Part shown: positions 2,877 to 58,016 of the stretch, in pieces
Layout of the letters: every line of letters starts with the position of its first letter
Numbering within the stretch: the stretch's first letter is position 1
Assembly: GCA_035309945.1 (NCBI GenBank)
Contig: DATGEQ010000009.1
Coordinates: 2,343-66,342, forward strand
Length of the DNA: 64,000 nucleotides
Direction: 5' to 3'
Origin: Gemmatimonadales bacterium
GTDB taxonomy: Bacteria; Gemmatimonadota; Gemmatimonadetes; Gemmatimonadales; GWC2-71-9
Translations under genes and position numbers: made by a program
Notes under the pieces: model-generated
Databases searched by the model: none
Seen by the model: only the letters and a program-made list of their open reading frames with translations
What the model was told of the DNA's origin: nothing

Positions 2877-3570
2877 GATGCTCCTCGACCACTCGGCCGT
2901 CGAACAGCTCGATCCTGCGATCGGCGTGCGCGGCGTAGCGCGGATCATGGGTGACCATGCAGATCGTGGCGCCGCCGCGGTGCAGCTCGCGCAACAGCTC
3001 CATCACGGCTTCGCCGTTCGACGAGTCGAGGTTGCCCGTCGGCTCGTCGGCGAGAAGAATGGCCGGGTCGCCGGCTACCGCACGCGCCACCGCGACGCGC
3101 TGCTGCTGGCCGCCCGACAACTGCGCGGGATAGTGCTTGACGCGATGCGACATCCCTACGCGCTCGAGCGCCGCGGTGACGCGCTTCTTACGCTCGGCGC
3201 CTCCTCCGGAGTTTTCGCGATAGGTCAGCGGCAGCTCGACGTTCTCGTACACGGTGAGATCGCCGATCAAGTTGAACGCCTGGAAGATGAACCCGATCTG
3301 CCGGTTGCGAACGCGCGCGCGGTCGGCCGCGGAGAGGTTCGCCACCGGCTCGTTCTCGAGCAGGTAGCTCCCCTCGGTCGGCGTGTCGAGCAGGCCGAGG
3401 ATCGAGAGCAGCGTCGTCTTGCCGCACCCCGATGGTCCCGCGATCGCGACGTACTCGCCCTGCTTGATGCCAAGGTGCACATCGGCGAGCGCGTGGGTCT
3501 CCACCTCGTCGGTGTAGAAGACCTTCTTGATCCCCTGCAGCTGAATGAGTGTCGCACCGTTCCCCGTCAT
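2869..3570 (-). CDS. ABC transporter ATP-binding protein (MacB/LolD-type)
   Basis: Walker A GPSGCGKTTLL, signature LSGGQQQRVAVARA, Walker B ILLADEPTGNLD and H-loop VTHD are present. The start is the ATG at 3570, preceded by AGGAGAA. The track ORF start at 3654 lies inside the repeat element. Confidence 0.92.
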   Translation of the reverse strand: MTGNGATLIQLQGIKKVFYTDEVETHALADVHLGIKQGEYVAIAGPSGCGKTTLLSILGLLDTPTEGSYLLENEPVANLSAADRARVRNRQIGFIFQAFNLIGDLTVYENVELPLTYRENSGGGAERKKRVTAALERVGMSHRVKHYPAQLSGGQQQRVAVARAVAGDPAILLADEPTGNLDSSNGEAVMELLRELHRGGATICMVTHDPRYAAHADRRIELFDGRVVEEHHA

Positions 3571-3585: not shown

Positions 3586-3655
3586 AGGTGTCAGGTGATA
3601 GGTGTTAGGTGTCAGGGACCTGCCACCTACCACCTGCCACCTATCACCTGCCACC
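3586..3655. repeat. Ten in-register heptamers forming a long imperfect inverted repeat
   Basis: The plus strand reads aggtgtc aggtgat aggtgtt aggtgtc | agggacc | tgccacc taccacc tgccacc tatcacc tgccacc. It fills the gap between the adaptor-gene stop (3655-3657) and the ATPase ribosome-binding site and start. Confidence 0.85.
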
Positions 3656-4899
3656 TATTTGAGTTTCACCCGATCCACGTTCCCGTACTGCGACATATCC
3701 GAGAGAATCACGCGATCGCCCTGGTTCAAGCCCTGGATGATCTCGATCGCATTCACCGATGACCGGCCGACGCGCACCGGCACCCGCACGGCGTAACGGC
3801 CGCCCTCCACCACCTTGAACATCCCGATCGTACTGTTGGACTGGCCGTAGGCGGGACGGCCGGTGTACAGCACGTTCTCGAGCCGGTCGACCTCGATCGT
3901 GCCGTCGACCGAAAGGTCGGGCCGCGCGCCGGCGGGGAGCGCGCCGTCGAGTGCCACGTCGACCGTTACGGTCCCGTTTACGGCGTTCGCATCGTAGCGA
4001 CTCACGTGTCCTGTAATGATTCCGTTCCTGGTATCGATAGACGCAGGCTGTCCGATCGCCACATCCTTCGCCTGGGTTTCGGGGATCTGCAGCACCGCTT
4101 TCAGTTTCCCGGGCTGCACGACCTTCGCGAGGATCGTCCCCTCCGTGACCCACTGGCCGAGCTGCAGCGACAGGTCGGTCAACGTGCCGGCGTCGCCCGC
4201 GCGCACCTGGAGTGCGCGGACGCGGGTTTCCTGGAACTGCGCGATAGCGCGCAACCGGTCGACCTGGGAGACCTGCACCGCGATCTGCGAGTCGAGGGTT
4301 GAGGCCATGAGCTCGAGCCGCTGCTGCTCGACGCGAGAGCGGGTCTCGAGCTCCTGCACGCGGTCCTTGGCAAGGGCGGCATCGTTCTGGGCGATGAGGC
4401 CGTCGCGCGCCAGGGTATCGGCGCCGAGCGCCGCCCGCTTCGCCGCCTCGTAGTCGGTGTGCGTCGTCGCGACGACGCCTTCCTGTGTGAGCTTCTGGCT
4501 CTGTAACGTGGTCCGCAGGCTCACGAGCTGCGCCTGCGCCGCGGTGTACTGCTGCTCGGCCTGCAGCGCCTGAATCTGGACGTCGGGGTTGGACATCTCG
4601 AGCAACAGCGTGTTCGGCTGCACTTGCTGCCCTGGCTGGGCGAGGATGTTCTCGACGCGCGCCGAGGCGAGCGCCGAGATGTAGCGGATGTGCTCGGGGA
4701 CGAGCGTCCCCGGGCCGCGCACTTCACGCAGCATCTCGCCGCGGCGCACCGAATCGATCCACGGCGCCCCGCCTTCGATCGTCGGCGCCGCGGGCCTGAG
4801 GCTCGTCAGCAGCAGCGTGACCAGCAGGACGACACCGGCCGCGATGCCGGCCTGCCAGAGGCGGCGGCGGTTTTTGACTGGCGCGCGCGGAATATCCAA
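3655..4899 (-). CDS. HlyD-family efflux adaptor (MacA-like periplasmic subunit)
   Basis: It has an N-terminal TM segment (IAAGVVLLVTLLLTSL), a long Q/L-rich coiled-coil hairpin region and a C-terminal beta-barrel-like part. It lies directly upstream of the ATPase and permease. The only available start is TTG at 4899, with AGGAGA about 12 nt upstream. Confidence 0.85.
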   Translation of the reverse strand: MDIPRAPVKNRRRLWQAGIAAGVVLLVTLLLTSLRPAAPTIEGGAPWIDSVRRGEMLREVRGPGTLVPEHIRYISALASARVENILAQPGQQVQPNTLLLEMSNPDVQIQALQAEQQYTAAQAQLVSLRTTLQSQKLTQEGVVATTHTDYEAAKRAALGADTLARDGLIAQNDAALAKDRVQELETRSRVEQQRLELMASTLDSQIAVQVSQVDRLRAIAQFQETRVRALQVRAGDAGTLTDLSLQLGQWVTEGTILAKVVQPGKLKAVLQIPETQAKDVAIGQPASIDTRNGIITGHVSRYDANAVNGTVTVDVALDGALPAGARPDLSVDGTIEVDRLENVLYTGRPAYGQSNSTIGMFKVVEGGRYAVRVPVRVGRSSVNAIEIIQGLNQGDRVILSDMSQYGNVDRVKLK

Positions 4900-5125: not shown

Positions 5126-5812
5126 TCACGCCACCTTGATTCCACTGCCACCCGCTCCGGCCGGCGGCTCGTTCTTGGTCTTGAACGGCCCCAGCACGTT
5201 ACGGGCGCTGTGCCACGCTCCCATCAATTCGGCATCTTCGCCGAACTGATACTTCACCACACCGTCCAGCAACTGCACCTGCTCGGCGATCTCCGCGAAC
5301 ACCGCATCGAGATCGGCGCTTGCGCCCACATGCTCGCGCCGGGCCTCACGGGTCGCTTCGAGTGTCTGGTCGAACTCGGCCAGCGCCGCCGCAAGATCCT
5401 CGAGCACCTTCTGCGACATCCCGAGGCTCACGAGTACATCCTTCTGCCCGCTCGCGTTTTCCAACGTCGCACGGGCAGCCGTCAGCAACGCCTGTTGACT
5501 CGCGTTGCCGGGCGGCAGCGGGAACTGGTTCGCCAGCTCCCCTTTTTGCTTCGCCGCCACCTTACCCACGACACGCAAATACCGCAGGATCTTGGTCTGC
5601 AGCGCGCGCCGCACTTCCTTCCGCTGCTTGGTGGCCTGCTGCGCCATCGCCACCCCATTCCGTTGCTGACCCGCAAGCACGTTCGCTCGCTCGATCAGCT
5701 CCTCGAGCTTCGCCAGCCCGAGGCCCTGCCCTACACCTTCCGTTTGATGCGCCCGCAAGAAATCGCGGACTCGCTCGGCCATTTCTAGCCGCCTACGCAA
5801 TTGGGCTCGCAT
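5126..5812 (-). CDS. Hypothetical all-helical protein (about 228 aa)
   Basis: The start is the ATG at 5812, preceded by GGAAGGGGGG. The sequence is MRAQLRRRLEMAERVRDFLRAHQTEG... and is helical and low-complexity, with G/C-rich third codon positions. I recognise no family. Confidence 0.6.
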   Translation of the reverse strand: MRAQLRRRLEMAERVRDFLRAHQTEGVGQGLGLAKLEELIERANVLAGQQRNGVAMAQQATKQRKEVRRALQTKILRYLRVVGKVAAKQKGELANQFPLPPGNASQQALLTAARATLENASGQKDVLVSLGMSQKVLEDLAAALAEFDQTLEATREARREHVGASADLDAVFAEIAEQVQLLDGVVKYQFGEDAELMGAWHSARNVLGPFKTKNEPPAGAGGSGIKVA

Positions 5813-6031
5813 AGAGCCCCCCTTCCTGGGTGAGGACTGGACACGGCGTCGGGATCCGTGTCCGCATTGGAAATCTCCCGACACCCCACCCCAAGGAAAA
5901 AATCGTTCCACGACGAATCGTGCTCAAAGTCCCGCGTGGAGTGTCCCTTTTTGAGGACACTTTTTGCGGACTCCCGGAAAGTGCCCAAACGGCGCGACGA
6001 TCTCGTCTGATATTTCGACACACCCCCTCGC

Positions 6032-6337
6032 CTGATTGTTGATCGAAGTCCGTCGATTGTTGATCCACGCGCATCGATTCCCGATCGACCTCGGCTGATT
6101 CCCCATCGCAGCCCGCTGATCGTCGATCGCGCTCCGCCGATCGCGCCGCTGCGTCCGGTGATTGCCGATCTACGCCTGCTGATTGTTGATCGAGAACCGC
6201 TGATCGTGACTGAAGGGAGGGGGAATGTCGATCGAGGGCCGCTGATTCCGCATCGCGCATCGGTGATCGTCGATCGGCGGTCGCTGATCGTTGATCCAGG
6301 TGCCCGTCCTGGGCGAATCGGTCGTCTGATCGGTCAG
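6032..6337. repeat. 15-unit, exactly 21-bp-phased degenerate tandem repeat (core CTGATYGTYGATCG plus a 7-nt variable spacer)
   Basis: Units start at 6032, 6053, 6074, 6095, 6116, 6137, 6158, 6179, 6200, 6221, 6242, 6263, 6284, 6305 and 6326 with no indel. I counted 15 GATC tetramers in about 306 bp. Confidence 0.9.
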
Positions 6338-6353
6338 TTCTGGAGGCGGACGC

Positions 6354-7322
6354 TCAGATTTCCCAGTTGGAGAACAACACTCCCTGGACGGCTTGCCGCT
6401 CGGGGTAGCCTGCGTAGGTCATTCGCAGGTCGGTCCAGCGCACGCGATAGCCGCGGCTGATCAGGCGACGAAATGCCTCGGTGTAACGGCTCTGGCACCG
6501 GATCGCGATGCGCCGGATGCCGGCCTTTGCGGCGGCCGCCTCGACCGCGCTGACCGCGGCATCGAACGCGGCGTCGCTGCGCGCGGCGAGCTTGAGCACG
6601 CGGACCTCGTCGCGCGTCCGGCTGTCCGCCAATGGCGCCGAGTGCCACACCGCCAGGGCATCGAGGCCGGTGTCGCTCTCCACCAGCGACGTGTCACCGA
6701 GGCCCAGCTCGACGGTGAGCAGGATCTCGCGCGAGAAGTCGATGCCTGGGGCGAGATCGTTGACGAGATGACGGCCCGCCGCCACGGCTGCTTCTTTGTC
6801 TTCCGCCGCGCGTTTGGACAGCAACACCGGCGCGGGATGGCCGCGCGTCGCGATCTCGTTCGTCAGGGTGATCGTCAGGAATCCCGGCGAGAATCCCAGC
6901 CGCGCGTAGAAGCCGATATTCTCCGGCGTGCGCGGCATCGTCTCGAGGCCGAGCGTCCCAACCCCGCGATCGATCAGCCAGTCGGCCGCCGTGCGGACGA
7001 TGGTCTTGCCGATGCCCGTGCCCTGGCGATCGGGTCGCACGGCGAGCGGCCCCATCCATCCCTCGAGGCCGGCCTGGTGCGCCACGTTGAACGCGGCGAT
7101 GTCGCCATGTTCGTCGCGCCACACCATCGCGCCGTCGCCGGCGTCGAGCAGCGCGTAGCGCCATACCAGTGGATTGAGCTGCGGGACGCGGACGCCGATC
7201 AGGCCGTCGCGGCGATAGCGGTCGGTGAACGCTTCCGCAAAGACGCGGTTCAGCTCGTCGATGTCGCGCTCGGTGGCGCGCTCGGGTCCGGTGACCCGGG
7301 TATCAGGCAGCCACGCTCTCAT
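6354..7322 (-). CDS. GNAT-family N-acetyltransferase (two-lobed, about 322 aa)
   Basis: It carries an acetyl-CoA-binding-type motif, RPDRQGTGIGKTIVRTAADWLIDRG, followed by FYARLGF. The start is uncertain: ATG 7322, 7355 and 7385 are all in frame and all overlap the end of the Rad50 gene (stop at 7303-7305). Confidence 0.78.
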   Translation of the reverse strand: MRAWLPDTRVTGPERATERDIDELNRVFAEAFTDRYRRDGLIGVRVPQLNPLVWRYALLDAGDGAMVWRDEHGDIAAFNVAHQAGLEGWMGPLAVRPDRQGTGIGKTIVRTAADWLIDRGVGTLGLETMPRTPENIGFYARLGFSPGFLTITLTNEIATRGHPAPVLLSKRAAEDKEAAVAAGRHLVNDLAPGIDFSREILLTVELGLGDTSLVESDTGLDALAVWHSAPLADSRTRDEVRVLKLAARSDAAFDAAVSAVEAAAAKAGIRRIAIRCQSRYTEAFRRLISRGYRVRWTDLRMTYAGYPERQAVQGVLFSNWEI

Positions 7323-9738
7323 CGGGAGCCGTAGGTCCAAGAGTGGCGGTTTCATCGCGTACGATGCTCGTTCCGGTCGTGGCATCGTACGCCACGCGGA
7401 TGATGCGATCGAGCCCGTCGCGGACCTGTTCGATGTGCGTGATGAGGATGACTTGCGGGAAGCGGTCGCCGAGGCGGCGCAGGAGCGCGAGCACGTGCTG
7501 GCGCCGCGCTTCGTCGAGCGAGCCGAAGATCTCGTCGAGCACGAGCAGCGACAGCGGCTGCCCGGCGCGCTCGGCGATCATCTGGGAGATGGCGAGCCGC
7601 AGCACGAGATTCGCGATGTCCTCTTCCCCGCCCGAGATCACCGGCTTCGGCACGCCTTCGTCGAGCACCACCACGCGATAATCCTCATCCAGATCGACTT
7701 CATCGTAGCGCGCATCGGTGAGATCCGACAGGAACCCCGATGCCAGGGCGCCGATCTCCGGCCGCATGGCCGCGTTCAGCTCGGCGCGCAGATCGGAGAA
7801 CGCGCGGTCGAGCTCGTTGTGCAACCGCAGCTCGACTTTCCGCTCACCAATCGTCCGCTCGCGCGCGGCGCGCTCCGTGGCGCGGCGCTCGCCTTCGCGC
7901 ACCGCCGTTTCCGCCGCCACCAGCTCGCCGCGCGTCTCGGCCACGGCCAATTCGGCGGCGCGCAGCGCGTGCGCCGCGCGATCGTGGCGCTCGCGCGCCG
8001 CCTGGAACTTGGGCTCCGAGAAACCTTGCGCCTTCACGGCGTCCGCAAGCTGGCGCGCGCTTTCCTCGCGGGCCGACAGCGCTTTCTCCGCGATCTCCGC
8101 TTCGCCGACGAGCGCCTCGGCCCGATCGGCGCGCGCGGCCAGCGTCGCGGCCTGCAGCGCCACCGGTTCGAGGCGCGCCAGCTCGGCACGCACCTCGTTA
8201 TGGCGCTCGACGTTGTACCCCGCGTCGCGCGCGGCGACGTGCTTCTCGATCTCCTGCATGCGTTTCGCCAACCCGGCGCGCTCCTTTTTCAGCCGCGCGC
8301 ATTCGCGGGCCTGCTCGCGCAGCGTGGTTTCGCGCTCGGTCACTTGCCGAACCTCTTCCCGCAGCGCGTCGCGCGCGGCTTCCGCCTGCGTCACCGCCGC
8401 GGGCGGATTCGCGAGCTGCTCGATCCGCTGCTTCAGCCACTTCCCATCGACGACAATCAGCTCGAGCTGCTCATCCAGCTCCGCCAGCACCGCGGGGTAT
8501 TCCGATCCGAGCGGCCGCCGGCACGTGGGACATTGCCCCTCGGGCCCGAGCCGCGCGATCTCGTCGCGATGGGTCTTCACCTCTTCGTGCTGCTTTAGCA
8601 GAGCGGCGCGGCGGGTGCCTGCGGACTCCTTCTCACGCACCCAGATCGACTGCTGCTCCTCGGCGGCCTGCTCGGCGGCGTCCAACCGCGCCGCGAGCCC
8701 ACCCGCCTCCTTGCTCACGCGCGCCAGGTCGGCATCGACCTCCGCCAGCTCTGCGATGCGCCGATCGAGGACGTTCAAGTTGCGCGTCAACTCGGTGAGC
8801 TTGGCCTGCTCCTCGCGCCGCGCCGCGTCCTCGCGGTGCAATCGATCGAGCTCGGCAAGCTCGGCCTTCAATTTGGAGATCGGCGCGACCTCGGCATCGA
8901 GGCTGCGCAGCTCCTCGCGCGCGGCAAGCGCCGCGGCCAGCTCCTTGTCGAGCCGCTGGAACTCTTGCCGCGCGACGACGACCCCTTGCTCCGCAACTCG
9001 CAGGTCGCCGTGCAGCGAGAGCGTGCGGTCGCGACGCTCGACCCACTGCTGCCACCGCGGCTCTTCCTCGGCGAGCGCCTGCTGCGCCTTGGCGCGTTCG
9101 TTCGTCGACTGCGTTGCGGCCTTGCGCGCCTCGGTCAATCGCCCCTCGGCGCTCTTCTTCTCTTTCTCGATTTCACTTTGCGGCGGCAGTCCGGTTTCGA
9201 GACCGTCGACTTCGTGGCCGAGCGCGTTGCGACGCTCGCGGATGCGCTCCTGCGCCAGCGTGAGCTGCTCGTGCCGTAGCACGCGCGAGAGGAACGCCGC
9301 GCGCTCGGGGCGCGTCGCGTCGGCCAGCACCGCCAGCTCTTTCTGGCCGGTGAAGTAGGTGTTGAAGAACTCGTCGTGCGTCATGCCGAGCACGCGCTGC
9401 AAACGACTGGTGACTTCTTTCAATGAATTCGCGACGACGGCGCCGTCCTGATACAGCTCCGCGTTGTTGAGGCCGCGCTCGACACGGAACGCGTGGTTGC
9501 CGAGCGCGAATTCGAGCTCGACGCGCACGGGCGCCCGCGCCTTCGCGCGCAGGTTGCGGATCGAGTCCTTGTCGCCGCGCGCGGCCGGATTGCCGTAGAT
9601 GGCCCACGCGATCGCTTCGAGCAACGACGTCTTGCCCGAGCCGTTCGGCCCGATGATCCCCGTGATGCCGTCGCCGAACGCGATCTCGGTGTCGGCGTGC
9701 TGGCGGAAATTCACGAGCCGCAGGCGCTGCAGCTTCAC
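7303..9738 (-). CDS. sbcC: Rad50/SbcC-type SMC-like ATPase
   Basis: Walker A GPNGSGKTS, long coiled coils with a central zinc hook CPTC, signature SGGEEDIANL, Walker B LLVLDEIFGSLD and H-loop ITHIEQV are present. The GTG start at 9738 overlaps the Mre11 stop (GTGA). Confidence 0.9.
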   Translation of the reverse strand: MKLQRLRLVNFRQHADTEIAFGDGITGIIGPNGSGKTSLLEAIAWAIYGNPAARGDKDSIRNLRAKARAPVRVELEFALGNHAFRVERGLNNAELYQDGAVVANSLKEVTSRLQRVLGMTHDEFFNTYFTGQKELAVLADATRPERAAFLSRVLRHEQLTLAQERIRERRNALGHEVDGLETGLPPQSEIEKEKKSAEGRLTEARKAATQSTNERAKAQQALAEEEPRWQQWVERRDRTLSLHGDLRVAEQGVVVARQEFQRLDKELAAALAAREELRSLDAEVAPISKLKAELAELDRLHREDAARREEQAKLTELTRNLNVLDRRIAELAEVDADLARVSKEAGGLAARLDAAEQAAEEQQSIWVREKESAGTRRAALLKQHEEVKTHRDEIARLGPEGQCPTCRRPLGSEYPAVLAELDEQLELIVVDGKWLKQRIEQLANPPAAVTQAEAARDALREEVRQVTERETTLREQARECARLKKERAGLAKRMQEIEKHVAARDAGYNVERHNEVRAELARLEPVALQAATLAARADRAEALVGEAEIAEKALSAREESARQLADAVKAQGFSEPKFQAARERHDRAAHALRAAELAVAETRGELVAAETAVREGERRATERAARERTIGERKVELRLHNELDRAFSDLRAELNAAMRPEIGALASGFLSDLTDARYDEVDLDEDYRVVVLDEGVPKPVISGGEEDIANLVLRLAISQMIAERAGQPLSLLVLDEIFGSLDEARRQHVLALLRRLGDRFPQVILITHIEQVRDGLDRIIRVAYDATTGTSIVRDETATLGPTAPDESVAA

Positions 9739-55968: not shown

Positions 55969-56604
55969 GTGCGTAACCCGAGAGTGCCACCTGGTCAGGC
56001 GGTCACCACCAAATGGCCGGTCCTGCATTACGGCGATGTGCCCACCGTCGATACCACGAAATGGATGTTCACGGTTTCCGGTCTGGTCGAACGGCCGTTT
56101 TCGCTCACCTGGAATGCATTCATCGCGTTGCCGCGCAAAACGGTCCACTGCGATATCCACTGTGTGACCACATGGAGCAGGCTGGATAATGACTTCGAGG
56201 GAGTTTCTGTCCAGGATTTGCTGCGGCGAGCGCAGGTGAAACCGACGGCCAAGTACTGCCTGGTCGTGGCCGAGCAGGGCTTCACGACGAATCTGCCGCT
56301 GTCAGATCTGGATCGACCGGAGAACCTCATCGCGTTGAATTGGGGGGGCGAGCCGCTGACGCCCGAGCACGGCTGGCCCGCGCGGCTGCTCGTCCCACAC
56401 CTCTATTTCTGGAAGAGTGCGAAGTGGGTACGCGGCTTTGAGCTATTAGAGGAAGATCTGCCGGGCTTTTGGGAGCAGAACGGCTACCACATGCGCGGCG
56501 ACCCCTGGACGGAAGAGCGATACGGCGGGCGAGGGCTCACGCAACACGAGATCAACCGATTTCGTAACGCGAGCAAGAACCCGCTGAAGAATCGGAATCA
56601 GTAA
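55969..56604 (+). CDS. Sulfite-oxidase-like molybdopterin-binding oxidoreductase domain protein
   Basis: Recognisable segments are VSGLVERPFSLTW..F..LP......DIHCVT.WS and HGWPARLLVPHLYFWKSAKWV. The start is the GTG at 55969. Confidence 0.85.
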   Translation: MRNPRVPPGQAVTTKWPVLHYGDVPTVDTTKWMFTVSGLVERPFSLTWNAFIALPRKTVHCDIHCVTTWSRLDNDFEGVSVQDLLRRAQVKPTAKYCLVVAEQGFTTNLPLSDLDRPENLIALNWGGEPLTPEHGWPARLLVPHLYFWKSAKWVRGFELLEEDLPGFWEQNGYHMRGDPWTEERYGGRGLTQHEINRFRNASKNPLKNRNQ

Positions 56605-56639
56605 TCATTGATCAATGATCAATGATCATTGATTATTGA
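56605..56639. repeat. AT-rich run of five palindromic heptamers (TCAWTGA) between convergent genes
   Basis: It reads tcattga tcaatga tcaatga tcattga ttattga and contains four TGATCA hexamers. It spans the 28-nt convergent intergenic gap and the stop codon of the M20 peptidase gene. Confidence 0.85.
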
Positions 56640-57970
56640 TCATGCGCTCCCGCGCCAAGCAGCTCGTAAAACCGCCGGAACACGCCGATCCCGTCCCACA
56701 ACTGCTTCAGCTCGAGCTTTTCGTTGGGCGCGTGTAAGCGGTCGTCCGGTAAACCGATCCCCGTGAGAATCACCGGCGCTCCTCCCGACGCGAGTGCGGG
56801 CACCACGGGAATCGAGCCGCCCGCACGCGCCGCGACCGTGCCCCGCCCCGTGACTTCCTTGAATGCGCGATCGAGCAAACCAAACGCGGGATGGTCGACC
56901 TTGATTTGCGCCGGGCCGGCGCCATGCAGAAACCGCACCGTCGCGGTGACATACTTCGGCGCAAAGCGCTTGACGGCGGCCGCAAGCTGCCGCTCGACGG
57001 TCGCCAGCTTCTGATTCGGCACGAGGCGCATGCTGACCTTGGCGGTCGCCTCGGCAGGAATGACGGTTTTCGCTCCTTCTCCCGTAAAGCCGCCCACAAT
57101 GCCGTGGATCTCGAACGTCGGCAGCGCCCACAGGCGCTCCAGTACTGACGCCTTCTTCAGGCCGACGAGTCCCTTTCCTTGCACGCGCTGGTTCAGGAAG
57201 TCCTTCTCGTCGAACGGCAGCTTCTTCCACGCGGCGAGCTCGGCTTTGGCGGGCCGTTTCACGGCTTCGTAAAAACCGGGAATGTTGACCTTGCCGTCCT
57301 CGCTTTTCAGACGGCACAGCAGCCGGCACAATTCTTCGTGGGCATTCGGCGCGGCGCCGCCGTACTCGCCGGAGTGCAAATCGGTCTTCGACGTGCGGAC
57401 CGTGATCTCGCCGTAGCACAACCCGCGCAGTGTCGTGTAGACCGCGGGCCAGCCCGGCGCGACGTACGACATGTCGGCTACGAGAACCGCGTCCGCGCCG
57501 ACGCGCTGCGGCTCGCGCTTCAACAAGTCGAACAGCACTTTCGAGCCGTATTCCTCTTCGCCTTCGATCAGGAAGCGGAAATTGACGCTCGGGTTCGCCG
57601 CGTCGATTGCTTTGAGCAGGCAGAACACCTGCCCCTTGTCGTCCGCGGCGCCGCGCGCGTAGATCCGGCCGTCGCGCCGCGTCGGTTCGAACGGCGGCGT
57701 CGTCCACTCGGCGAGCGGATCGGGCGGTTGCACGTCGTAATGCCCGTAAATCAGCAGTGTCGGCGCACCGGGAACTTCCGGACCTTTGGCCCACACGACG
57801 GGGTGCGTTTCACTGCCGAGGAACTGCACGTCATGACAGCCGCTGCGTCGCAATTCCGCTCCGACCCATTCCGCGGCGGTGCGGCAGTCCTCGTTGTGTG
57901 CCGGCAGTGTCGAGACGGAGGGAATCCGCAGAAAGTCGCTCAGCTCGCTGAGCAGTCGCTCTTGATCCAT
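56633..57970 (-). CDS. M20-family dipeptidase
   Basis: Recognisable segments are IPSVS, LLIYGHYDVQP and ARGAADDKGQ. I chose the start at ATG 57970 (MDQERLL). Confidence 0.88.
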   Translation of the reverse strand: MDQERLLSELSDFLRIPSVSTLPAHNEDCRTAAEWVGAELRRSGCHDVQFLGSETHPVVWAKGPEVPGAPTLLIYGHYDVQPPDPLAEWTTPPFEPTRRDGRIYARGAADDKGQVFCLLKAIDAANPSVNFRFLIEGEEEYGSKVLFDLLKREPQRVGADAVLVADMSYVAPGWPAVYTTLRGLCYGEITVRTSKTDLHSGEYGGAAPNAHEELCRLLCRLKSEDGKVNIPGFYEAVKRPAKAELAAWKKLPFDEKDFLNQRVQGKGLVGLKKASVLERLWALPTFEIHGIVGGFTGEGAKTVIPAEATAKVSMRLVPNQKLATVERQLAAAVKRFAPKYVTATVRFLHGAGPAQIKVDHPAFGLLDRAFKEVTGRGTVAARAGGSIPVVPALASGGAPVILTGIGLPDDRLHAPNEKLELKQLWDGIGVFRRFYELLGAGAHDQ

Positions 57971-58016
57971 GGCGGCAGAATGTAGATACACGCGTCGCGG
58001 CTAGCCAGCAAGTGAC

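Follow-up and report, generated by a model that had tools for sequence, protein, structure and literature searches.

A Strictly Phased 21-bp Repeat Array Upstream of a Helical-Protein Gene Family in Gemmatimonadales: a Probable Array of Protein-Binding Sites

A strictly phased array of 21-bp repeats precedes the gene for an all-helical protein in the 64-kb stretch of Gemmatimonadales DNA that we analyzed, referred to here as the window. The array is probably a set of protein-binding sites of a kind that has not been described before. Its position and its period are conserved across the family to which the gene belongs, and its rows are in register with a promoter-proximal operator row, op1. 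With moderate confidence, we read the tract as a cis-regulatory lattice of protein-binding sites that extends an enhancer-like region at its distal end and would control the helical-protein gene through a sigma-54-type promoter. The features of the region are collected in Table 1.

Table 1. Features of the array and of its surroundings, in coordinates of the window
Feature	Position	Strand	Description
21-bp array	6032..6337	-	About 15 units on an exact 21-bp lattice, from register, GATC phase, lag-21 z of 9.8 and per-column information
op1, degenerate copy	6003..6020	-	TGTCGAAATATCAGACGA; family consensus TGTCGAAATGTGTGGACA; promoter-proximal end of the lattice
op2, palindromic operator	5942..5959	.	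TGTCCTCAAAAAGGGACA; TGTCC-N8-GGACA = TGTC-N10-GACA
Conserved block	5915..5925	-	GAGCACGATTC; directly upstream of the -24 element; family consensus gagcacg.tTc
-24/-12 type promoter element	5895..5910	-	TGGAACGATTTTTTCC in the window; family consensus TGGaaCGATTTAcGCA
Leader stem-loop	5839..5891	-	GGUGUCGGG...CCCGACGCC; at or near the predicted 5' end of the transcript
Helical-protein gene, 228 aa	5126-5812	-	GC3 0.78; all-helical product; gene to which the array belongs
GNAT acetyltransferase gene	6354-7385	-	Stop side faces the array

The repeat array and the gene family that it accompanies

Successive units (CTGATTGTTGATCG.., TCGATTGTTGATCC.., etc.) follow one another in 21-nt steps from position 6032. 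The initial annotation had described 15 such units without a single indel, and the periodicity of the tract bears this out. The lag-21 identity over positions 6032 to 6346 is 0.531, compared with 0.265 +/- 0.027 in 1,000 dinucleotide-preserving shuffles, the best of which reached 0.337 (z of 9.8). Since lags 20 and 22 are both at background level (0.23 and 0.26), the phase is unbroken by indels over about 15 units. Read along the minus strand, which is that of the gene, the units have the consensus CGATCrrCAATCAGCGGnCnn; namely, two RATCR heptads (GATCAAC and AATCAGC) followed by a G/C-rich third heptad. The units are only about 50% alike (~53%), which is why Tandem Repeats Finder sees just 2.2 copies (6034-6079). 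In a sliding 21-bp detector, the tract at 6032 is by far the strongest of the window, with a score of 0.60 versus 0.42 to 0.43 for the others. The earlier count of 13 recognizable cores among 15 units is a fair one, given about nine units with a good 14-nt core and about four more with one half; the unit at 6305 is unrecognizable, and that at 6326 has half a core. The 7-nt spacer is G/C-rich, as had been proposed, but it is not freely variable: columns 16, 19, and 20 are G, C, and G, respectively, in 10 to 12 of the 15 units.

All 15 GATC and all 22 GAT[CT] words of the tract fall in a single phase modulo 7. While the number of GATC tetramers had been counted correctly, the expectation of about one was too low, as the window holds 634 of them in 64 kb (9.9 per kb), a local density that predicts about 3.0 in the tract. 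The excess is still significant (Poisson P of 6e-7) and amounts to a 5-fold enrichment. A special role of GATC is not supported by comparison with other lineages of the family, whose equally phased arrays have GTGAGCG, GACCGCG, or other cores without GATC. Because paralogues and lineages have other cores, GATC characterizes one lineage rather than the element as such.

The array sits between the stop codon of the GNAT gene (6354) and the start of the helical-protein gene, in a locus that includes GNAT, SbcC-like ATPase, HlyD, and ABC genes. More than 750 homologues of the helical protein were found, none of them informatively named; loci of the family in the genome collection are nearly all from Gemmatimonadales/Gemmatimonadota, with a few in bins labeled otherwise. 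Pfam and PHROGs contain no family for the protein, PADLOC returned nothing specific, and the NCBIfam model PQLLE_fam gives a weak, subthreshold match in 32 of 40 family members. The AlphaFold model (pLDDT of 80) predicts long helical hairpins, and sequence and fold searches of the PDB retrieved generic coiled coils only; fold and family searches gave no hint of DNA binding. An exact-sequence look-up of the protein of the window had no match, probably because another start codon has been called. The family is restricted to Gemmatimonadales and has no assigned function.

The array follows this gene family across non-syntenic loci, in agreement with the link to the helical-protein gene that had been suggested from the window. 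Among loci with enough upstream sequence, not all of which are independent, the top autocorrelation lag upstream of the homologues is 21 or 42 bp in 77 of 85 cases (30 of 34 genome loci and 47 of 51 metagenome loci). The homologues in this set are 32 to 100% identical, and the lattice is also found before paralogues of 32 to 40% identity with unrelated neighbors. The neighbors of the homologues are non-syntenic with those in the window, in sets of 7 and 46 genome loci as well as in 80 loci from metagenomes. In particular, only the closest orthologues (L177, L202, and L238) retain the GNAT gene, most related loci having unrelated genes in its place, and the genes upstream of the array vary between loci in both identity and orientation. 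Because the lattice recurs before non-syntenic homologues, it is part of the upstream region of the helical-protein gene and not of that of the GNAT gene.

In 24 of the 34 genome loci, the sliding detector places a 21-bp tract upstream of the gene at a distance of no more than 900 bp. Its other peaks in about 250 kb of flanking sequence are mostly marginal, the two strongest of those checked lie inside coding regions, and comparable noncoding tracts are absent from the remainder of these flanks. Across the family, the lattice measures 200 to 450 bp, with up to twenty sites, and its lengths cluster around 285 bp. It is chromosomal and present in several copies per genome, the cores differing between copies; it was not found on viral contigs. 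A scan of the whole collection for RATCR motifs in 21-bp phase had, among the matches listed, unrelated and apparently coding 21/42-bp tandem repeats from many phyla.

Promoter-proximal elements and their relation to the array

We aligned the 250 bp upstream of the family genes and found the conserved elements that lie between array and gene. The palindromic operator op2 is a perfect copy in the window, where it is the sole inverted repeat of its type in 64 kb. It is located 47 to 50 bp before the TGG of the promoter in 57 of 94 loci, and the distance is exactly 48 bp in the window as well as in 37 of the 57 anchored loci; the family promoter block, GAGCACGaTTC...gTGGaaCGATTTAcGCAa, starts 47 to 50 bp (mostly 48) downstream of op2. 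The op1 row, TGTCGAAATGTGTGGACAGCG, is 21 nt long and is itself a TGTC-N10-GACA palindrome. It lies upstream of op2, by 75 bp in 24 of 45 loci and by 61 bp in the window, where op1 is displaced by 14 bp from its usual position. Downstream of the promoter, a leader stem-loop and then a ribosome-binding site precede the gene. The sequence of the stem-loop is conserved in the family alignment, and the stability of its fold is unexceptional (z of -0.4 relative to shuffles).

In 40 nonredundant loci, the promoter element is conserved at C5 (36/40), G6 (40/40), G13 (29/40), and C14 (38/40), where the invariance of the GG is no independent test, as this dinucleotide served as the alignment anchor. 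The family consensus spaces its GG and GC by 10 bp, which is the arrangement of sigma-54 promoters (TGGCACG-N4-TTGCW); the -12 dinucleotide of the window is TC, not GC. If transcription starts about 12 bp past the -12 element, at about position 5884, the center of op2 would lie at about -66, that of the op1 copy of the window near -127, and the array would span from about -148 to -453. Inverted repeats some 60 to 200 bp upstream of the promoter, as expected of activator sites, are present in the form of op2 and op1. Searching six-frame translations for GAFTGA and RpoN-box motifs, we found no gene for RpoN or an enhancer-binding protein in the window or in the fetched flanks (L001-L007 and L128-L172), and for this reason sigma-54 dependence is something that we infer from the promoter sequence. 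The exact promoter block has two matches in species-representative genomes, both at known family loci. Because palindromes and a -24/-12 type promoter stand between the array and the gene, the array lies in an enhancer-like context.

On a lattice anchored at op1, the rows of the array are in register with the op1 row and partly homologous to it. In the lineage of the window (L175 and L180), the unit ...AATCAGCGGAC... aligns with AATGTGTGGAC of op1, and in another lineage the unit CGCGaCcGaGAGccGACCGCG has G.G..GAC.GCG in common with TGTCGAAATGTGTGGACAGCG. The far end of the array carries a distal direct pair, TGTCCTC-N13-TGTCCTC, in five loci, at -445/-446 or -466/-467 from the TGG, i.e., in 21-bp steps; a sixth locus, L159, has a weaker copy at -487. 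This pair is absent from the window and its close orthologues. From the common register and the partial homology, the units seem to have diverged from copies of the operator row, op1 itself ending the lattice, and the 21-bp steps in distance suggest that the lattice changes its length in whole units. GGAC or GAC is common to the op1 row and to the units of the lineages that we labeled A and C. A universal rule of one GGAC half-site per unit was rejected, since 40 arrays contain only 55 GGAC, with a weak peak at the operator phase.

Core sequences, constraint, and alternative explanations

The cores differ between lineages. The core of the window, CGATC..AATCAGCGGAC, is found in L128, L175, L177, L180, and L202, whereas L135 and L137 have CGATCG, L138 and L140 have AGTGAGCG, and L141, L151, L155, and L204-L217 have GACCGCGCG; L158 has 42-bp units containing GACAGGTGTCTCC. 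Paralogues within one genome also have different cores, together with a common op1, op2, and promoter. Since the cores differ while op1 and op2 are common, one activator cannot read all arrays in a sequence-specific manner.

Within a lineage, the core is kept. Orthologues at 74 to 88% protein identity retain CGATC..AATCAGCGGAC in arrays of 9 to 16 units. L173, which is the closest relative, is 96.9% identical over 1.65 kb. It has an equal number of units, zero indels, and 15 substitutions in the 322-bp array; by our own assignment of positions to lattice phases, 6 of these fall in spacer columns, 4 in degenerate units, and 4 are consensus-allowed Y-to-Y changes, leaving 1 that breaks a GAT. 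Across ten independent orthologue pairs, substitutions affect 32 of 551 core positions versus 100 of 825 positions in variable columns (Fisher P of 8e-5), a test that unit-shift misalignment can inflate in distant pairs; the three closest pairs, which form the clean subset, have 4 of 243 versus 35 of 752 (P of 0.036). The core thus changes about half as fast as the spacer columns between orthologues, a pattern that indicates purifying selection on the core positions. Gaps within arrays are rare and often occur as compensating pairs.

These results answer the refuting conditions named in the initial annotation: the array does not encode a protein repeat, and it does not vary freely as a minisatellite would. 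The initial annotation had preferred constrained sites to a slippage repeat, a view that gains from a core evolving about 2-fold more slowly, from the unchanged copy number in a strain of 97% identity, and from the persistence of the core down to about 74%. It had also placed weight on the two-helical-turn phase, and this phase, rather than the whole sequence, is indeed what is conserved.

The strongest rival to a lattice of binding sites is a structural one, in which the tract acts as sequence-independent DNA, a phased spacer or looping arm of which only periodicity and length count, while the cores drift by concerted evolution. One task of such an arm might be to carry distal TGTCCTC sites toward the proximal palindromes, and any 21-bp repeat would do. 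The retention of the period with wholly different cores between lineages and between paralogues of one genome speaks for this model, and the quantization of the distal pair in 21-bp steps (in five loci, with a weaker sixth) and the clustering of array lengths near 285 bp agree with it. Nevertheless, the core columns outconserve the spacer columns between orthologues, and the window and its close orthologues have no distal operator pair to be brought in. Neither does the shape of the DNA favor an arm: the Bolshoy-Trifonov wedge model, whose outcome is model-dependent, predicts a straight path for the array (end-to-end/contour ratio of 0.975 versus 0.947 for shuffles), and its predictions of curvature are inconsistent across related loci. 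Overall, we consider the structural explanation rather unlikely. Intrinsic curvature as such was rejected on the same wedge-model results.

A neutral minisatellite, that is, an operator-like 21-bp unit duplicated in tandem and homogenized by unequal crossing-over without any function, seems improbable to us. It could account for the range of 9 to 16 units among orthologues and for locus L133, where nearly identical, recently expanded units come with a 1-bp deletion; the divergence of the whole array between the window and L173, at 4.7%, also equals that of other noncoding DNA of these two closest strains (3.7 to 5.8%). Yet the array occupies the same location in 77 of 85 loci, including those of paralogues of 32 to 40% identity, and old units that are about 50% alike hold an exact phase over 300 bp. 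Selective conservation of the core positions and a copy number that is unchanged at 97% identity are likewise at odds with neutrality.

There is little to recommend a transcribed repeat, whether as a 3' untranslated region of the upstream gene, a long leader, or a small RNA, that would titrate an RNA-binding protein. Read-through transcripts may contain the repeats, as the stretch from the GNAT stop (6354) to the array has no predicted terminator. However, the array lies upstream of the conserved promoter, the genes upstream of it differ in identity and orientation at other loci, no Rfam family matched anywhere in the window, and RNA folding of the array is no better than that of shuffles on either strand (z of +1.0 and +0.6). 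The folding and Rfam results led us to reject a structured RNA.

Iteron- or centromere-like sites, which the initial annotation had favored, are very improbable, as is a Dam/GATC methylation switch. Direct 21-bp repeats at two helical turns are iteron-like, the RATCR heptads recall the arrays of ribbon-helix-helix partition repressors, and the 5-fold enrichment of GATC would suit a Dam switch. Against these stand the neighbors of the array (GNAT, SbcC-like, HlyD, and ABC genes), with no Rep, ParA/ParB, or ribbon-helix-helix gene adjoining, its chromosomal location in several paralogous copies per genome with different cores, its absence from viral contigs, and, for the Dam switch, the arrays of other lineages that have no GATC. 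An IHF-like reading of the WATCAR in the core was discarded because the TTR part of the IHF consensus is missing.

Finally, a protein-coding heptad repeat of 7 aa can be dismissed: although 21 bp equal 7 codons and one plus and one minus frame are open across the array of the window, GC3 in the open frames is 0.51 to 0.56 versus 0.78 to 0.87 in neighboring genes, there is no Pfam match, 26 of 66 distinct related arrays have zero open frames, and in the others the best open frame has a mean GC3 of 0.69 versus 0.84 for genes. On the GC3 and stop codons of the window and of these 66 arrays, the coding repeat is ruled out, and the array is noncoding. These values agree with the A/T-rich third codon positions that had been noted for the open frames at the outset. 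The open plus-strand frame had been reported correctly as well, but of the minus-strand frames, at least two of which were said to be open, only one is fully so, and the other two contain one stop each.

Proposed mechanism and comparison with known systems

The binding-site lattice suggests the following mechanism. RNA polymerase with sigma-54 would occupy the TGG-N10-(G/T)C element, and the TGTC-N10-GACA palindromes, located at about -66 and -127/-140, would be recognized by an enhancer-binding activator. Nucleated at these palindromes, a sequence-specific protein could fill the phased sites cooperatively. Since the spacing is exactly two helical turns, the 13 to 15 sites or so would all face one side of the DNA, and the resulting one-sided nucleoprotein filament may set the threshold or amplitude of activation or may silence the promoter until it is displaced. 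Two candidates can be put forward for the binding protein. One is the activator itself, which might act through units close to the operator in sequence, because GATC-N10-GGAC resembles TGTC-N9-GGAC; the partial homology between units and op1 points to this regulator. Alternatively, the paralogue-specific cores point to a lineage-specific binding partner, for which the encoded helical protein itself is the obvious candidate. Several observations weigh against this reading: the -12 dinucleotide of the window is TC, its op1 is degenerate and displaced by 14 bp, no gene for RpoN or an enhancer-binding protein was found in the window or in the flanks searched, and between the two closest strains the whole array diverges at the pace of other noncoding DNA.

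More speculatively, the lattice of each paralogue might be its own "address," on which a dedicated protein, possibly the helical protein, polymerizes as a one-sided filament that gates the common sigma-54 enhancer. We put this forward as a tentative idea. If such a self-specific lattice is real, a co-evolving protein-DNA lattice would represent a new bacterial enhancer or silencer architecture, as opposed to discrete operators.

Bacterial enhancers are usually seen as two to five activator sites; here, a lattice of about 300 bp is kept family-wide while the sequence of its sites is reinvented in each lineage, and the hosts belong to an abundant, barely studied soil phylum. If bound as proposed, the lattice would be a natural large-scale, cooperative, and face-specific assembly controlling a bacterial promoter and would offer a tractable system for studying the co-evolution of operator arrays and their binders. 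It also provides a first entry point into the regulation of a widespread protein family (>750 members) with no assigned function.

None of the known systems with which we compared the array joins a strictly phased lattice of 200 to 450 bp, lineage-specific cores, and conservation before a chromosomal gene family, and we found no description of such arrays in Gemmatimonadota or at sigma-54 promoters in the searchable literature. At glmY, the sigma-54 activator GlrR occupies three TGTCN10GACA motifs that lie upstream of the gene by more than 100 bp (PMC3045617). Sigma-54 enhancers such as this one (GlrR/QseF at glmY) resemble the upstream region of the family, in which the consensus has a GG-N10-GC element preceded by TGTC-N10-GACA palindromes roughly 60 to 150 bp upstream. 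Yet known enhancers of this class have 2 to 5 activator sites, whereas the lattice adds 300 bp with 13 to 15 phased units and lineage-specific cores. Unlike them, it has no linked activator gene, and its sigma-54 dependence is predicted from the DNA sequence.

DnaA forms arrays at oriC in which low-affinity sites are nucleated from strong ones. The logic proposed here is the same: high-affinity palindromes would terminate a phased array whose sites, weaker but related, would fill cooperatively. The two differ in protein, spacing, and process (transcription versus replication). PpsR/CrtJ acts at TGT-N12-ACA sites in cooperating pairs, sometimes far apart; to our knowledge, no phased array is known for this regulator. 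A full-text search for the palindrome TGTCN10GACA also lists a paper on the PpsR system. PpsR sites overlap sigma-70 promoters of photosynthesis genes, whereas the palindromes described here lie at enhancer distance from a -24/-12 element.

Iterons are direct repeats of 17 to 22 bp, spaced by about 22 bp, in the origins of plasmids and phages. The array has in common with them the two-turn direct repeats, the conserved core with a variable spacer, and, presumably, cooperative binding on one face. In contrast to iterons, it lacks an initiator gene, an AT-rich unwinding element, and the setting of a replicon; its units number 15 rather than 3 to 9, and it is chromosomal, multicopy, and always located before one gene family.

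The ribbon-helix-helix protein omega of pSM19035 binds arrays of WATCACW heptads, and the array of the window is likewise built from 7-bp RATCR subrepeats (GATCAAC and AATCAGC). Here, however, the motif occupies only two of every three heptads, and no ribbon-helix-helix, partition, or small DNA-binding gene was found in the neighborhood of the array. Because other lineages of the family use unrelated cores, the heptad resemblance is specific to one lineage. Elsewhere in the window, a second heptad tract consists of eight contiguous RATCAWT heptads at 56590-56645.

Copies and surroundings of the helical-protein gene

The gene for the 228-aa all-helical product belongs to a multicopy family. At one related locus (L131, also numbered L003), a second helical-protein copy lies in tandem with the first, and single genomes carry two separate loci in the pairs L134/L138, L135/L144, L140/L148, L146/L153, and L160/L163. 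In these two-locus genomes, the array core is particular to each helical-protein copy. Metagenomic contigs with the gene are mostly only 1-2 kb long, which may simply be because assemblies of this type tend to consist of short contigs. At L155 (also L006), identical copies of a small ORF (MCRSTAKLSRKFYEKFGDDVANELVDWFNMVDATYRSDLR...) flank the helical gene on either side in direct orientation, and a relative is found downstream at L135 (also L004); these copies may represent a duplicated or mobile segment.

Within the coding sequence itself, one stretch has a weak 21-bp periodicity, as does the matching position in L131, L132, and L145 (about 0.43-0.45). Heptad (coiled-coil) repeats of the helical protein would fit this pattern.

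Coordinates of the features described in this part
Feature	Coordinates	Strand	Reference
Tandem second helical-protein copy	~5338-5964		L003 (L131)
Small ORF, first copy	3041-3319		L006 (L155)
Small ORF, second copy	5976-6254		L006 (L155)
Small-ORF relative	7595-7921		L004 (L135)
Intragenic 21-bp periodicity	5217-5430		window
Hairpin-element remnant	~5828-5837	-	window
Heptad tract	56590-56645		window
Convergent gene	55969-56604	+	window
Convergent gene	56633-57991	-	window
Pair of 7-bp tandem repeats	3586-3658	+	window
HlyD-family gene, stop	3655		window

A hairpin element inserted in family loci

The leader or upstream region of L129, L135, L151, L202, L208, L213, L215, and L238 contains an inserted repetitive hairpin, GTCCTCACCCCCTGACCCCCTCTCC...GGAGAGGGGGAAC, sometimes in two copies. 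Its appearance is that of a REP/MITE-type element belonging to these genomes. Several family loci carry it downstream of the conserved leader stem-loop and ahead of the ribosome-binding site; in L202 and L238 it occupies the position of op1, the conserved TGTC-N10-GACA palindrome row. The window retains a remnant, GTCCTCACCC.

Short repeats and GATC frequency in the window

Eight contiguous RATCAWT heptads (in order, GAATCGG, AATCAGT, AATCATT, GATCAAT, GATCAAT, GATCATT, GATTATT, and GATCATG) form an A/T-rich, almost palindromic tract wedged in where two convergent genes have their stops. The tract has the RATCR heptad in common with the main array: of the 28 occurrences of RATCRNNRATCR in the window, where 5.6 would be expected, 10 fall in the array and 8 in the tract. 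The tract could be a site for the same factor as the main array or, alternatively, a bidirectional terminator-like hairpin.

GATC occurs 634 times in the whole window against ~200 expected at 66% G+C; at ~3 times the base-composition expectation, there is therefore no sign of GATC avoidance in the genome.

Two adjacent 7-bp tandem repeats, AGGTGTC (4.4 copies) followed by ACCTGCC/ACCTATC (5.6 copies), with Tandem Repeats Finder scores of 41-75, are located at the junction of the HlyD-family gene and an ABC ATPase gene.
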